Shown in pieces: positions 25,195-31,690 of a stretch of DNA of 64,000 bases. The position numbers and the translations under genes are program-made. This stretch comes from Bacteroidota bacterium (GTDB taxonomy: Bacteria > Bacteroidota > Bacteroidia > Bacteroidales > Paludibacteraceae), in assembly GCA_017860295.1 (NCBI GenBank), contig JAFNAS010000010.1, positions 4,151 to 68,150 on the forward strand. Reading direction: 5' to 3'. Below the pieces are notes generated by a model, which was not told the origin of the DNA, ran no database searches, and saw only the letters and a list, made by a program, of their open reading frames with translations. The first letter of the stretch is position 1; each line of letters opens with the position of its first letter.

Positions 25195-25307
25195 CAAAGG
25201 TAGCGATTTGTCTTTAATGTGTCGCAATGTCGTGCTGTGATGTGCCTCCTTTTAAGGCACTAACGTAGAGAAAGTCGATGTAAAACGGGCAAAAAAATAT
25301 ATCTTTG
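25195..25307. promoter_or_regulatory. Divergent -7 elements for ruvB (minus, 25195-25202) and the aminotransferase (plus, 25300-25307)
   Basis: TACCTTTG on minus and TATCTTTG on plus, each just upstream of its gene. Confidence 0.6.
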
Positions 25308-25355
25308 CCAATCCAAAATATTCCAGATTATTCATTATCTAATACTGTTATTATA

Positions 25356-26543
25356 ATGTCTTGTTTTTCACAATCAGTCAGTGCTTTGCGTTCGTCGGCC
25401 ATTCGCGATTTGATGAGTTTGGCAACTCGCCCCGATATGATCTCTTTTGCTGGCGGAATGCCCGATAACGAACTTTTTCCAATTCGTGAAGTGCAGGAAA
25501 TTGTTGATGATTTGTCGGTGAAAGAACGACAGGTAGCCATGCAATATGCACCTACGACCGGCTATCCACCATTGCTTGATGCTTTGGGTGAATGGCTTCG
25601 AGAGAAGGGCTTCCCGATGGATAACAATAAGCTGATTATTACCACCGGATCGTTGCAGGCAATCAATATCTGGGCCAAAATGTTTATTGATCCGGGAGAT
25701 GTGGTGCTGACCGAAAATCCGGCTTTTATCGGAGCCTTGTCTGCATTTGGGTCATATATGCCCCGCATCCACGGGATTGAGATGGATGGAGAGGGTATCC
25801 TGATCGAACTGTTAAAAGAAGCGTTGAAACTCGATCCCAAATTTTTATATGTTACACCTACATTTCACAACCCGGCCGGTTTGACCTATAGTCCGGAACG
25901 ACGAAAAGAGTTGCTGGAAGTGATGAATGCGACTGAAATTCCTATTCTGGAAGATGATGCATACGGCGAATTGTGGTTTGACGAAGTCGAAAAACAGCAT
26001 ATTGTCCCTCTCAAAATTCAGTCGGAGAAAGAGCAACAGATCTGTTATACCGGCTCGTTCTCTAAAATATTCGGACCGGGAATGCGGCTTGGATGGATGT
26101 TGGTAGGCGAAGAGTTTTATCGCAAAGCCGAACTTTGCAAACAATGTGTCGATGCCTGTTCTCCCACTTTTACGCAAGTGCTGGCGCATCGTTTTCTTGC
26201 ATCGGGACAACTCGACAGTTACGTGGCGAGTGTGCGGGGTATTTATCATCAACGGTGCAACTATATGAAAGAGGCCATTAAATGCTATTTTCCTGCCGAG
26301 GCCTCTTTTGTGGAGCCCAAAGGAGGATTTTATATTTGGATTAAATTGCCCGACGGAGTTGACGAAATGGAGTTGCTCAAAAAAGTTATTGCCGAAGGAG
26401 CGGTTTTTGTGGTGGGATCCACATTCGATCCGCAAGGAGCTTCAAATGGATATATTCGTGTGTCTTATTGTAACACTGACGAAGTGAAAATCGAAAAAGG
26501 AATTAAGGTTATTGGTGACGTGTTGAAAAAAATGATGGTATAA
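25356..26543 (+). CDS. PLP-dependent aminotransferase class I (LysN/MocR-catalytic-domain-like, no HTH)
   Basis: SAIRDLM, ISFAGGMP, QYAPTTG, PTFHNPAG, EDDAY, PLP lysine in GSFSKIFGPGMRLGW. Confidence 0.9.
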   Translation: MSCFSQSVSALRSSAIRDLMSLATRPDMISFAGGMPDNELFPIREVQEIVDDLSVKERQVAMQYAPTTGYPPLLDALGEWLREKGFPMDNNKLIITTGSLQAINIWAKMFIDPGDVVLTENPAFIGALSAFGSYMPRIHGIEMDGEGILIELLKEALKLDPKFLYVTPTFHNPAGLTYSPERRKELLEVMNATEIPILEDDAYGELWFDEVEKQHIVPLKIQSEKEQQICYTGSFSKIFGPGMRLGWMLVGEEFYRKAELCKQCVDACSPTFTQVLAHRFLASGQLDSYVASVRGIYHQRCNYMKEAIKCYFPAEASFVEPKGGFYIWIKLPDGVDEMELLKKVIAEGAVFVVGSTFDPQGASNGYIRVSYCNTDEVKIEKGIKVIGDVLKKMMV

Positions 26544-26574
26544 TGTCAAGATTCAATGCGATCCTTTTGTGAAT

Positions 26575-26606
26575 TTTGATTGTTTAAGAAATAAATAGTA
26601 TCTTTG
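26575..26606 (+). promoter_or_regulatory. Full-consensus Bacteroidetes promoter with no downstream protein gene
   Basis: TTTG (26575-26578), 20-bp spacer, TATCTTTG (26599-26606). Confidence 0.8.
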
Positions 26607-26611
26607 CGCTG

Positions 26612-26797
26612 TTTTTGTTGTTGGAATGTTCGTGCAACTTCACAGCGAGAGCAATTTAAGCATGTAACCAAAGGCCTGTTTCAGTTATCGGAGTATGTCT
26701 TTTTGCTTAAATTCAAAGGGATAATAGTTTTACACGATATGCTACTGAGGTAGTGACCGGGAAACCCTTTTGAAGTCCTTTCAATTGGGTTTTTTTT
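26612..26797 (+). ncRNA. Candidate ~185-nt structured RNA, 6S-like (possible Bacteroidales-1-type RNA)
   Basis: Own promoter and terminator. Outer stem 26630-26639/26726-26737, central bubble of 13 and 12 nt, perfect 10-bp inner stem 26653-26662/26704-26713, further stem 26670-26675/26697-26702. Confidence 0.6.
26762..26797 (+). terminator. Intrinsic terminator closing the candidate ncRNA
   Basis: AAACCC-tt-TTGAA-gtcct-TTCAA-tt-GGGTTT followed by a T run. Confidence 0.8.
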
Positions 26798-26858
26798 ATT
26801 TCTGAAAACGAAGTAGTGTAAATGTATAATCGATTGTAATTCAACGAAAAAAAATAAT

Positions 26859-26866
26859 TATCTTTG
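26859..26866 (+). promoter_or_regulatory. -7 promoter element for rimP-nusA-infB
   Basis: TATCTTTG, 28 bp upstream of rimP. Confidence 0.65.
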
Positions 26867-26894
26867 CGGTTAATTTACCCGGTCAGATGATTTT

Positions 26895-27362
26895 ATGATA
26901 CAGAAAGAACTTATATACCAACTTATTGAAGAGTTTATTGCTGATACAGAGCATTTTATTGTCGATGTAAAAGTAAGTCCCGACAACGATATCGTTGTAG
27001 AACTCGATTCAGCAAAAGGCATTGACATTGAATATTGTGCAGAATTAAGCCGTTATATAGAATCAAAGTTTGACCGGGAAGTGGAAGACTATGAACTTGA
27101 AGTCGGTTCGGCAGGTTTGAGTTCTCCGTTCAAAGTGTTAAAACAGTATCAAAAAAATATTGGCAACGAAGTGGAAGTCCTTACCAAAGCAGGTCAAAAA
27201 ATCTGCGCTGTTTTGAAAGATGCGACCGAGGAAGCTTTTATGGTAACTGTCGCCAAACAGGTAAAACCGGAGGGAGCCAAGCGCAAAGTAACAGTAGAAG
27301 AAGACGTAGTGTTTCCGTATAACGAAGTAAAATACACAAAATATCTAATAAGATTCAAATAG
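26895..27362 (+). CDS. rimP: Ribosome maturation factor RimP
   Basis: CAELSRYIE, DYELEVGSAG, PFKVLKQYQKNIG; first gene before nusA-infB. Confidence 0.95.
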   Translation: MIQKELIYQLIEEFIADTEHFIVDVKVSPDNDIVVELDSAKGIDIEYCAELSRYIESKFDREVEDYELEVGSAGLSSPFKVLKQYQKNIGNEVEVLTKAGQKICAVLKDATEEAFMVTVAKQVKPEGAKRKVTVEEDVVFPYNEVKYTKYLIRFK

Positions 27363-27364
27363 CT

Positions 27365-28615
27365 ATGAGCAAAGTTGAACCTGTCAATCTTATTGACACC
27401 TTTTCCGAGTTTAAAGAGCTGAAGAACATTGATCGTCCTACGCTAATTAGTGTGCTCGAGGAGTCCTTCAGAGGCACTTTGGCCAAAATGTTCGGTTCGG
27501 ACGAAAATTTTGACGTCATTATTAACCCCGATAAGGGTGACTTCGAAATTTGGCACAACCGTGAGGTGGTTGCCGATGACGAGGTGGAAAATCCTGTCAG
27601 TCAGATTTCGTTGACTGATGCAAAGCAAATTGATACGGATTATGAAATAGGGGAAGAGGTGACCGATGCCGTTGATTTCCTCGGATTCGGTCGTCGGGCT
27701 ATTTTGACATTGCGTCAGACGCTGGCCTCCAAAATTTTAGAACTTCAGAAAGATTATCTCTATAACAAATATAAAGACCGGATCGGTCAGATTGTTATGG
27801 GAGAAGTATATCAGATGTGGAAAAAAGAAATTCTGCTTTTGGATGATGAAGGTAATGAATTGATTCTTCCGAAAACGGAACAAATTCCAGCTGACTTTTA
27901 CCGGAAAGGAGATACGGTGCGCATGGTGGTTGTGAAAGTAGACAACCGTAACGGTAATCCAAAAATCATAGTATCTCGTACTTCTCCATTATTCCTGCAG
28001 CGTTTGTTCGAACTGGAAGTGCCTGAAATTCATGATGGATTGATTACTATTAAGAAAATTGCTCGTATTCCGGGCGAAAGAGCGAAAGTTGCCGTGGAAA
28101 CTTACGATGAACGTGTCGATCCGGTAGGAGCTTGCGTTGGGGTCAAAGGCGCCCGTATTCATGGCATTGTGCGTGAGTTGCGCAACGAAAATATTGATGT
28201 TATCAATTATACGGCGAATGTCTCTTTGTTTATTGCAAGAGCATTGAGCCCAGCCAAGATATCTTCTCTCCGTTTGGATGAGGAAAATAAAAAGGCAGAC
28301 GTTTATCTGAAGCCCGAAGAAATTTCGATGGCCATAGGTAAAAGTGGCATGAATATTCGGTTGGCTTCAATGCTTACCGAATTTACCATTGACGTTTATC
28401 GTGATATTGACGGAGAAGAAGATGAAGATATTTATCTGGATGAATTCACTGATGAAATAGAACAATGGGTAATTGATGTGCTTAAATCCATCGGCTGCGA
28501 TACAGCCAAAAGCGTACTGGCAATTTCTCGCGAAGAGCTGATTCAACGTACTGACCTTGAAGATGAAACTATTGATGATGTATTGAACATTATCAAAGCA
28601 GAATTTGAAGAATAA
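27365..28615 (+). CDS. nusA: Transcription termination/antitermination factor NusA
   Basis: S1 and KH domains; RIPGERAKVAV, DPVGACVGVKGARI, AIGKSGMNIRLA. Confidence 0.97.
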   Translation: MSKVEPVNLIDTFSEFKELKNIDRPTLISVLEESFRGTLAKMFGSDENFDVIINPDKGDFEIWHNREVVADDEVENPVSQISLTDAKQIDTDYEIGEEVTDAVDFLGFGRRAILTLRQTLASKILELQKDYLYNKYKDRIGQIVMGEVYQMWKKEILLLDDEGNELILPKTEQIPADFYRKGDTVRMVVVKVDNRNGNPKIIVSRTSPLFLQRLFELEVPEIHDGLITIKKIARIPGERAKVAVETYDERVDPVGACVGVKGARIHGIVRELRNENIDVINYTANVSLFIARALSPAKISSLRLDEENKKADVYLKPEEISMAIGKSGMNIRLASMLTEFTIDVYRDIDGEEDEDIYLDEFTDEIEQWVIDVLKSIGCDTAKSVLAISREELIQRTDLEDETIDDVLNIIKAEFEE

Positions 28616-28714
28616 AACGAAAACTTCCCTGAAGCACGATCGGATGATCCGGCTTCATGTGCAAATTGTCGGTTGTCATTTTGCTTATCTTTTCAAACAC
28701 ACTAAATATAAACT

Positions 28715-31690
28715 ATGTCGAGTATCAGGTTAAATAAAGTAGTTAAGGATTTGAACGTGGGACTTTCGACGGCAGTCGAGTTCTTGCGCAAAAAAGGCTA
28801 TGCTGTTGAGGAGAACCCCAATTTCAAGATTTCGGACGATCAGTATCTTATCCTTGTTAAAGAATTTAGCAATGATAAAGATCTGAAAATGAAATCGGAG
28901 CGTGAAACACAAATGCGCTTGGAAAAAGAGAAGGCTCAAACGATTACAGCTGCAGGCTATGAAGCTCCTGCTGCCAAAGAGAAACCCAAACCTGAAGTTA
29001 AACCTGAACCTAAAGTTGTTGCTGAAGAGATAAAAGTTGAGGTATCGGAGGAGATCCGTCCTCATATTACAACTGTTGGTAAAATAGATCTCGATTCTTT
29101 GGAAAAGAAACCGGAACCAGCCCTCGTAGCTCCTGCTCCGGAAAAGAAACCGGAACCGATTCCGGAGCCTGAAGTGATAGAACAAACCGTTGAAAAAATT
29201 GAAGAACCGGCTCCGGCTCCTGTAATAGTAGAACCAGAACCGGAAATGCCGAAAGAAGAACCGGTAGCGGAGATGAAGCCTGTAGTAGCAGAACCGGCTC
29301 CTGTGGTTGAAAAGAAAGAACCGAAAACGAAAGCCCCTGAAGAAAAGGTTGTAACTATCCAACCGGAGGTCTCGGAGGAGGTCGTTGCAACTCCTGAACA
29401 GGTAGATGATAATGGCGTATTTCAATTGAGACCTACTGTTATTGAACAAAATATCCGGGTCGTAGATAAGATAGACCTTTCGGCGCTTAACCAACAGACC
29501 CGTCCGAAGAAAAAATCGAAGGAAGAAAAGCGTAAAGAACGCGTACAGCGCGAACAACAGAATACGCCGAATAATCAGCATCCTACTACAGCACCTGCAG
29601 CAGCACCTGCAGCTCAGGGTAACGCAGCGACTGCTGATCAGAAAAAAGAAAAACGGAAGCGAATACATAAGGAAAAGGTAGATATTACCAAGCCGAATAC
29701 ACCGGCAGGCAATGCTCAACAAAAACCTCATGACAACCGGCATAAGAGTTCGGGTAATTTTCAGAAAAGACCCTTTAAGCCGGCAGTGAATGAGGAAGAT
29801 GTTCAAAAACAAATCAAAGAAACCCTCGCTCGTCTTACAGAGAAGAAGATCAAAGGTTCTAAATATAGAAAAGAAAAGCGTGACAACGTCTCGGCTCGTA
29901 TGCAGGAGCGTGAAGACAAGGAACGTGACAATGAAAATATACTGAAACTCACCGAGTTTGTTACGGTGGCAGAGTTGGCTACCATGATGGATGCTCCTGT
30001 TACAAAGGTGATCGCCACTTGTATGAACTTAGGTGTAATGGTGTCTATCAATCAACGTCTTGACGCTGAAACCATCAATATCGTTGCTGATGAATTCGGA
30101 TACAAGACCGAATATGTGAGCTCGGAAGTAATCGATGCCATTGCTCAGGATCAGGAGGAAGATCGCGAAGAAGATCTGGAATCCCGTCCTCCTATTGTGA
30201 CAGTCATGGGACACGTCGATCACGGTAAAACATCTTTACTCGATTACGTTCGCAAAGCAAATGTGATTGCCGGTGAAGCCGGTGGTATTACACAGCACAT
30301 CGGAGCCTATCACGTGACATTGGAGAGTGGTCGTGAAATTACTTTTCTCGATACTCCGGGTCACGAAGCATTTACAGCTATGCGTGCCCGTGGTGCTGCT
30401 GTTACCGATATTGCCATTATCATTGTGGCTGCCGACGATAGCGTGATGCCTCAAACCATCGAAGCCATCAACCATGCATCAGCAGCAAATGTTCCGATGG
30501 TGTTTGCTATCAACAAAATAGACAAGCCGGGTGCAAATCCTGAAAAGATAAAAGAAGCGTTGGCTAATATGAACTACCTGGTGGAAGACTGGGGCGGTAA
30601 ATATCAGTCACAGGAAATTTCGGCCAAAAAAGGAGTGGGTGTGCATGAACTACTTGAAAAAGTGTTGTTGGAAGCCGACCTGCTCGAACTGAAGGCCAAT
30701 CCTAATAAACGTGCGATCGGTTCTATCATCGAATCGTCGTTGGATAAGGGGCGTGGTTATGTATCAACCGTTTTGGTAAAAGACGGAACACTGACTATTG
30801 GTGATGTGGTACTTGCCGGAACTCACTTCGGTCGTGTGAAAGCGATGTTCAACGAACGTAACCAACGGGTAACTACAGTGGGTCCTTCGGAACCAGTGCT
30901 GATTCTTGGTTTGGACGGAGCTCCTCAGGCAGGCGATACTTTTAATGTGTTACCGACCGAACAGGAAGCGCGGGAGATTGCCAACAAACGTGAACAGTTG
31001 CAGCGTGAACAAGGTCTGCGTACCAGCCGTCACATTACGCTGGACGAAATCGGTCGCCGTATCGCTATCGGAAACTTCCAGGAGTTGAATGTGATTGTGA
31101 AAGGTGACGTGGATGGCTCTATCGAAGCGCTTTCCGATTCGTTGATAAAACTTTCTACCGAAGAAATTCAGGTAAATGTGATTCACAAAGCGGTCGGTCA
31201 GATTTCCGAATCGGATGTTATGCTTGCTGCGGCTTCGAATGCTATTATCGTCGGTTTCCAGGTGCGTCCGTCAATGGCAGCCCGCAAACTGGCCGAGAAA
31301 GAAGAGATCGATATCCGCCTCTACTCCATTATCTATAATGCGATTGAAGAGTTGAAAGCGGCTATGGAAGGGATGCTTTCTCCCGAAATCAAAGAAGAGG
31401 TGGTGGCTACGCTCGAGGTACAAGAGGTCTTCAAGATTACCAAAGTGGGTTCGGTTGCCGGATGTATCGTACGTGAAGGTAAGATTAAACGCGGAACGAA
31501 AGTACGCCTTATTCGTGACGGTATTGTGGTCTTCAGCGGCGAGCTTGGGTCTCTGAAGCGTTTCAAAGACGATGTGAAAGAGGTTGCCAACGGATACGAA
31601 TGCGGTTTGAATATTGCCAACTACAATGATATTAAAGCGGGCGATCTTATCGAAGGCTATGAAGAAGTTGAAGTTAAGAAGACTCTTTGA
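28715..31690 (+). CDS. infB: Translation initiation factor IF-2
   Basis: [55 protein letters not shown]; Pro/Glu-rich N-terminal linker. Confidence 0.98.

Follow-up and report, generated by a model that had tools for sequence, protein, structure and literature searches.

The candidate RNA region (26544-26894) was read from the sequence as the interval between an aminotransferase gene and rimP in the window, that is, in the whole 64,000-nucleotide stretch of DNA that was analysed. The features of the locus are listed below with their coordinates, strand and basis.

25305..26543, + strand: class I/II aminotransferase gene, 412 aa (Pfam PF00155, E=1.5e-29)
26575..26606, + strand: RNA promoter, with the -33 element TTTG at 26575-78, a 20-nt spacer and the -7 element TATCTTTG at 26599-26606 (sequence)
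26611..26797, + strand: predicted RNA, ~185-187 nt (covariance model R1; start inferred at 26609-26613, end within T8)
26611..26652, + strand: P1 hairpin, stem 26611-26618/26645-26652, 26-nt loop 26619-26644 (covariation)
26653..26713, + strand: P2, 10-bp stem AATTTAAGCA/TGCTTAAATT at 26653-62/26704-13, variable hairpin cap 26663-26703 (pair counts)
26714..26741, + strand: linker CAARRGGAURAUAGUUUUACACGAU, invariant (alignment)
26742..26753, + strand: P3, 4-bp hairpin CUAC-loop-GUAG with variable loop (pair counts)
26759..26797, + strand: intrinsic terminator GGGAAACCC-UU-UUGAA-GUCCU-UUCAA-UU-GGGUUU followed by U8 (sequence)
26833..26866, + strand: rimP promoter, with ATTG at 26833-36, a 22-nt spacer and TATCTTTG at 26859-66 (sequence)
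26895-27362, + strand: rimP (Pfam RimP_N)
27365-28615, + strand: nusA (Pfam NusA_N/KH_5/S1)
28715-31690, + strand: infB (Pfam IF-2/GTP_EFTU)

Promoters of Bacteroidetes follow the consensus -33 TTTG / -7 TAnnTTTG, and a generic sigma-70 promoter scan is uninformative for Bacteroidota. A preliminary description of this DNA had placed a full-consensus promoter, TTTG-N20-TATCTTTG, before the RNA unit, a terminator about 185 nt after it and a separate promoter before rimP; all three were found in the sequence, at 26575-26606, at 26762-26797 and, for the second TATCTTTG, at 26859-26866. The -7 box of the RNA promoter was kept as TA(T/C/A)CTTTG in the alignment of 12/12 genomes of the genus Microbacter. 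The -7 box of the rimP promoter, which sits 28 nt upstream of the rimP ATG (26895), was also kept in 12/12 genus genomes, with a conservation equal to that of the RNA's own promoter. The leader from this second promoter to the rimP ATG is about 25 nt long and contains no hairpin, and the rimP-nusA-infB operon behind it spans 26895..31690 (+). The RNA transcript must start at or before 26612, because the pair 26612-26651 covaries.

The order of aminotransferase gene, promoter, RNA, terminator, second promoter and rimP was common to 12/12 genus genomes. The aminotransferase gene was syntenic in every within-genus copy (69-92% amino acid identity) and was not so in other genera. Its stop codon lies 67 nt before the RNA unit in the window and 67-262 nt before it across the species read, and no obvious terminator was seen by eye in the 67-nt interval of the window. 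The aminotransferase transcripts probably end at the terminator of the RNA. One clade had a long spacer of 196-262 nt between the aminotransferase gene and the RNA.

The strong terminator is composed of the arms AAACCC/GGGTTT (26762-67/26787-92) around TTGAA/TTCAA (26770-74/26780-84), followed by T8 (26790-97), and its hairpin energy was -13.3 kcal/mol. Its end is located 97 nt upstream of the rimP ATG. The segment GAAACCCTTTTGAAGTCCTTTCAAT showed zero substitutions across the 17 aligned sequences, the terminator being invariant with its loops included, and the DNA directly downstream of the terminator was unalignable among the genus genomes.

The full-length RNA was present at the same site in the 12/12 species genomes that the genus comprises, whose records carry the names Microbacter or Paludibacter sp., and every part of the unit was kept in these 12 genomes and in 10 metagenome contigs. 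A BLAST-type search matched each of the 11 remaining genus genomes, with 73-98% identity, and no other genus. About 65% of the RNA positions were invariant, while RimP of the same genomes fell to 48-58% amino acid identity and the aminotransferase to ~69%. The invariant positions formed the blocks UGUUGGAAUGUUYGUGCAACUUCAC, CUUAAAUUCAARRGGAURAUAGUUUUACACGAU and GAAACCCUUUUGAAGUCCUUUCAAU, with freely variable segments between them; such an uneven pattern is what would be expected for a structured RNA.

The distribution was examined with the covariance model R1, which was built from the 12 genus sequences and scored 180-229 bits in all 12 genus genomes and in the metagenome copies. When R1 was run on 251 family genomes, three weak matches (27-29 bits) appeared outside the genus, none of them upstream of rimP. 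Two of these, in genome g18, carried a -7-box-like promoter word, one of them (L032) being located just upstream of a lipoprotein gene, and the third, in genome g26, had a similar-looking terminator. Among 40 relatives, a looser R1 search gave only weak matches, which came from other families of the order and scored no more than 30.5 bits, and with filters off the model found nothing further in 18 rimP loci from other genera. An exact 23-mer scan of 185,579 species genomes matched this genus only, and a 20-mer of the terminator led to the 10 metagenome contigs, all of which contained the full-length RNA. The RNA was absent from ~240 other family genomes and from viral contigs, and no second copy was found in the window genome, where it is single-copy. 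Homologues outside the genus were rejected, with only weak look-alikes by R1 and none by the 23-mer scan. As far as these searches reach, the RNA is restricted to one environmental Bacteroidales genus, Microbacter.

The fold was derived with RNAalifold and explicit pair counts, and the analysis was repeated on a 17-sequence alignment that included four new metagenomic variants. In the consensus fold, 98% of cells were paired, versus 35-56% when the partners were slid by 1-3 columns. All cells of the P1 stem (100%) were paired, and three of its eight pairs showed compensatory double changes (UG to AU, GC to AU and UA to CG), while the P1 loop, UGUUGGAAUGUUYGUGCAACUUCACA, was nearly invariant. 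The P2 stem was nearly invariant as well, with 99% of cells paired and one compensatory pair. Its cap differed in sequence between clades and folded as a hairpin atop P2 in every species. The perfect 10-bp stem AATTTAAGCA/TGCTTAAATT at 26653-62/26704-13 and the AAAGGC/GTCTTT stem had both been described before and were recovered here. P3 was 100% paired, with one compensatory pair (A-U to G-C) in three distinct sequences.

Two further pairings of the linker were seen. Linker positions 26726-29 and 26733-37 can pair with 26636-39 and 26630-34 of the P1 loop, which corresponds to the outer stem (TCGTG/CACGA and AACT/AGTT) of the preliminary description. This stem stood insofar as it was pairable in 15/15 distinct sequences; its changes were of the wobble type only, and with P1 formed it would be a pseudoknot between loop and linker, which is a plausible addition to the model. 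Positions 26713-20 can also pair with 26766-73 as a candidate antiterminator, again in 15/15 distinct sequences, with one-sided or wobble changes only. The duplex energies of these two alternative linker pairings were -7.5 and -10.9 kcal/mol. For the window sequence, the minimum free energy fold was calculated at -50.2 kcal/mol, the consensus model of P1, P2, P3 and terminator at -44.2 kcal/mol, and the antiterminator conformer at -40.5 kcal/mol, which makes it 3.7 kcal/mol less stable than the terminator conformer. The rod drawn earlier for this RNA, single and with an open central bubble, lacks P1 and reached -37.1 kcal/mol, 7 kcal/mol worse than the consensus model. That rod had to be given up, as positions 26645-26652, inside its 13-nt 5' bubble strand, pair with the leader positions 26611-26618 with the backing of covariation, and half of the proposed bubble is therefore duplexed. 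The broader claim was supported, namely that a structured RNA gene lies here that is unannotated and non-coding, is served by a promoter and a terminator of its own and lacks an Rfam match; conservation of structure in relatives was seen as covariation among the genus sequences. The unit has its own promoter, no conserved ORF, an intrinsic terminator and a covarying structure, which are the marks of an independent intergenic sRNA gene.

The RNA had been taken for a divergent 6S/Bacteroidales-1 RNA, and Bacteroidales-1 has been treated as a 6S homologue (bioRxiv 10.1101/2024.04.05.588293). With Rfam 15 at gathering scores, the whole 64-kb window gave no match, and within 26500-26900 at E<=10 only chance-level matches (E 0.39-9.5) far below the gathering scores were obtained; these gave no match beyond chance level to the rimP leader (Firmicutes) model. 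The covariance models RF00013 and RF01693 under permissive filters found no match in 26500-26900 at E<=10, and RF00013 had no match genome-wide at E<=1. The genome's own Bacteroidales-1 RNA was located on another contig (C17:33030-33205, minus strand, 104 bits) and takes the form of a rod closed by a 12-bp stem, and 12/12 genus genomes had one such RNA each, always elsewhere, at 95-107 bits. The words that had been named as Bacteroidales-1-like were absent from this genuine copy, to which the candidate aligned locally with a score below the shuffle mean. The 5' and 3' ends of the candidate do not pair with each other; the 5' end forms a local hairpin and the 3' end the terminator hairpin. With no model match, a true copy elsewhere, no closing stem and one bubble strand paired, the proposed identity was dismissed on the covariance models, the separate genuine copy and the zero sequence likeness, and the 6S RNA of these bacteria is a different molecule from the candidate. 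The distance between the Bacteroidales-1 RNA and the RNA upstream of rimP is only about 11 kb, on the same contig, in four species of the genus and hundreds of kb in others.

Possible targets and mimicry were searched for as well. Sense or antisense matches elsewhere in the genome were at most 14 nt long, which is the chance level, and with 2627 crude translation start regions the best duplexes did not surpass what shuffled queries gave. The linker's pairing to rimP codons 21-29 (26957-80, -20.2 kcal/mol) was the best in the window and fell to background level in other species, and the complementarity of UGACCGGG in the sRNA to CCCGGUCA in the rimP 5' UTR was lost in the alignment even in the closest species; both candidates were discarded. 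Mimicry of the rRNA operon leader or of 16S rRNA was likewise rejected, with local alignments below the shuffle mean; the comparison used a complete genome of the genus, as the window assembly contains no rRNA operon. In the 25 contigs of the window genome, no 16S/23S rRNA operon was detected, conserved primer words being absent at 2 mismatches, which is typical of a draft or metagenome-assembled genome. The KH domains of NusA have been reported to recognise the motifs AUA and AUU (PMC2724277). Both words occur in the linker and are too short for discrimination.

The leader that usually precedes rimP provides the comparison for a cis role. In most bacteria, the rimP-leader is a GGGc...gCCC hairpin with a U stretch before rimP, for which NusA sensing has been suspected; Naville and Gautheret (2010) called it the most ubiquitous bacterial attenuator, took the conserved sequence of the leader hairpin as a sign of protein recognition, and reported distances to rimP of 4-130 nt and a leader of ~180 nt in B. 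subtilis (PMC2965389). A structured 5' element without a name has also been reported before rimP in Flavobacteriaceae (PMC9723704). All 15 other genera that were read, 14 from the same family and one from a different family of the order, had the canonical leader, in the form of a TAnnTTTG promoter, ~20 nt, a hairpin such as GGAGGGGAC-loop-GUCCCCUUC, a weak T tract and rimP 10-40 nt later. In these sister leaders (loci L049-L070), a transcript start GCAnnCGAA, a GGGGAC-loop-GUCCCC hairpin and an interrupted T tract were noted 60-90 nt upstream of rimP. The rimP intergenic regions of the sister genera measured ~90-240 nt, mostly too short for an RNA unit such as this one. All the sister genera that were read have the leader and Microbacter does not, so that gain of the RNA and loss of the canonical leader go together. 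The terminator of the RNA, 97 nt before the ATG, falls inside the reported range of distances. Its arms, AAACCC/GGGUUU, have the reverse polarity of the canonical hairpin, and with -13.3 kcal/mol and U8 it is stronger than the sister leader hairpins with their interrupted T tracts. In an nhmmer search, a profile of the 15 canonical leaders from sister genera found no match in the RNA or its flanks at E<=100, and thus gave no support to a descent of the RNA terminator from the canonical leader.

Four readings of the unit were weighed besides the one we prefer. That it is a gene for a small protein or leader peptide of 13-43 aa, beginning MFVQLH at the ATG at 26626, is scarcely credible. The first six codons of this frame are identical in 16/17 aligned sequences (11/12 genus genomes), and the sole variable base among them (TTC/TTT) is synonymous. 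This frame is the only one in the unit that opens with ATG, and the genus alignment held no conserved ORF, in keeping with the earlier claim that no credible ORF exists here; its stops are scattered by species after 13, 14, 28, 42 or 43 codons, and one species has ACG in place of the ATG with no substitute start. Only one of five third positions varies and the other four stay fixed across deeply diverged sequences, the stretch in front of the ATG is just as invariant, and codons 7-9 covary with the 5' leader, which is untranslated, as partners in an RNA stem. The small ORF was therefore rejected on its scattered stops, its lost ATG and its almost complete want of synonymous variation. Nearly as improbable is a second 6S-like RNA that would bind RNA polymerase or sigma through the P1-loop word AAUGUUYG, which resembles TAnnTTTG. 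Some bacteria have two 6S RNAs, and the similar size (~185 nt), the promoter-like word in the P1 loop and the position next to the nusA operon would suit such a role. Against it stand the failure of both Rfam models, the canonical Bacteroidales-1 RNA in each of the 12 genus genomes, the lack of a closing stem and of a bubble open on both strands, and the dissimilarity to the genome's own 6S RNA; moreover, a T/C change in the loop breaks the TTTG in 5/15 distinct sequences and yet the RNA pairing is kept. The word itself (P1 loop, 26619-26634, UUG...AAUGUUYG) lies 18 nt downstream of the real -7 TTTG. In the DNA it might serve as a weak overlapping promoter; its T/C variation and the covariation of P1 argue instead for a constraint that would act at the RNA level.

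The constant position of the RNA beside rimP, in a genus that is without the canonical leader, points toward a cis role. The RNA might then be a leader or attenuator of rimP-nusA-infB and the functional replacement of the canonical rimP-leader in the genus; this is the main rival, which we regard as possible, if on the unlikely side. Transcription from the strong first promoter would either stop at the invariant terminator or read into the operon, adding to a basal second promoter. NusA, or some other protein encoded by the operon, would make the choice by recognising the invariant hairpin; alternatively, the domain of P1, P2 and pseudoknot would decide whether UCAAAGGG (26713-20) pairs with CCUUUUGA (26766-73) and thereby keeps the terminator from forming. 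The 185-nt product of termination would then be a by-product, or it would serve a further function. The arrangement parallels that of E. coli, where metY, terminators and a minor promoter precede rimP-nusA-infB. The canonical leader of the sister genera and its lack in Microbacter speak for this explanation, as do the structured element of Flavobacteriaceae (PMC9723704) and the sequence-invariant terminator, to which the argument for protein recognition made in PMC2965389 applies equally. The 8-bp alternative pairing, possible in all 15 distinct sequences, survives an AG/GA swap, and its conformer lies just 3.7 kcal/mol above the competing one. Anecdotally, the RNA region also has the 3-bp word GGG-AAA-CCC-UUUU, and the 8-mer UGAAGUCC occurs both in it and in the leader of the sister-genus locus L049. 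On the other side, a conserved full promoter separates the terminator from rimP, the U8 terminator is strong, and the canonical profile found no similarity in the RNA or its flanks, where the arms run CCC...GGG and not GGG...CCC. The antiterminator shows no compensatory change, and an 8-bp pairing with G-U allowed was estimated to be near chance expectation. A combined reading is doubtful, namely that a 185-nt folded sensor RNA replaced the rimP-leader, sets the expression of rimP-nusA-infB and is also released as a stable sRNA. Its domain of P1, loop-linker pseudoknot and P2 would bind NusA, IF2 or another signal, the binding would decide whether the invariant terminator or the UCAAAGGG/CCUUUUGA antiterminator forms, and an attenuator would have been caught in the act of turning into an RNA gene.

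The best reading, which we hold tentatively and at a little less than even confidence, is that of an autonomous, genus-restricted, structured sRNA that would act in trans. It is favoured by the gene layout, the strong U8 terminator and the equally conserved rimP promoter. No trans target emerged among the genome matches or the start regions, which counts against it, as does the invariance of the terminator with its loops, which is unusual for an ordinary sRNA. On this reading, termination would yield a discrete, abundant transcript that acts in trans, and the same terminator would also end the aminotransferase transcripts and shield rimP from read-through. As to how the trans-acting sRNA would work, we favour, at a rather low probability, recognition of the folded RNA by a protein partner, to which the freezing of about two thirds of the bases next to proteins of ~50-70% identity, together with the possible pseudoknot, points; pairing with mRNA through the exposed P1 loop is somewhat less probable still.

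To our knowledge, no regulatory RNAs have been described for the genus Microbacter. What is new, judged from the alignments and model searches, is an RNA family without an Rfam match that has a clear fold and experiences very strong purifying selection; it is this family, together with its apparent replacement of the rimP-leader, that is novel, and not the kind of mechanism. The RNA occupies the leader of an operon that encodes the termination factor NusA and the initiation factor IF2. If it took over the control exerted by the rimP-leader, it would show an attenuator growing into an RNA gene and would give access to the autoregulation of NusA in Bacteroidota. As a purely trans-acting RNA, it would be one more genus-specific sRNA.

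Several known systems resemble the candidate in part. Among the Bacteroidales, GibS and MasB of Bacteroides and SrcF of Segatella are intergenic sRNAs that likewise have a promoter and a terminator of their own. The candidate shares with them the gene layout, the narrow, genus-level distribution and the invariant single-stranded loops, but its invariant fraction is far larger and includes the terminator, and target predictions gave none. In E. coli, metY (the initiator tRNA gene) is followed by the t1/t2 terminators, the promoter P2 and rimP-nusA-infB, which likewise amounts to a stable RNA gene with its own promoter, a terminator, a second promoter and the operon; the candidate, in contrast, is not a tRNA, having no match in the Rfam scan, and is confined to one genus. 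To the 6S/Bacteroidales-1 RNAs (RF00013, RF01693) it is similar in length, in being non-coding and in having one long imperfect hairpin (P2 in the candidate), whereas it fails both models and has neither the closing stem nor the open bubble. The rimP-leader (PMC2965389) is separated from the candidate by the conserved promoter that stands between the candidate and rimP and by the lack of detectable similarity to the sister leaders. Like the rimP-leader, the candidate lies directly upstream of rimP-nusA-infB on the same strand with a hairpin and U run conserved in sequence, but it has about 150 nt of extra conserved structure, reversed arms (CCC...GGG) and a strong U8.
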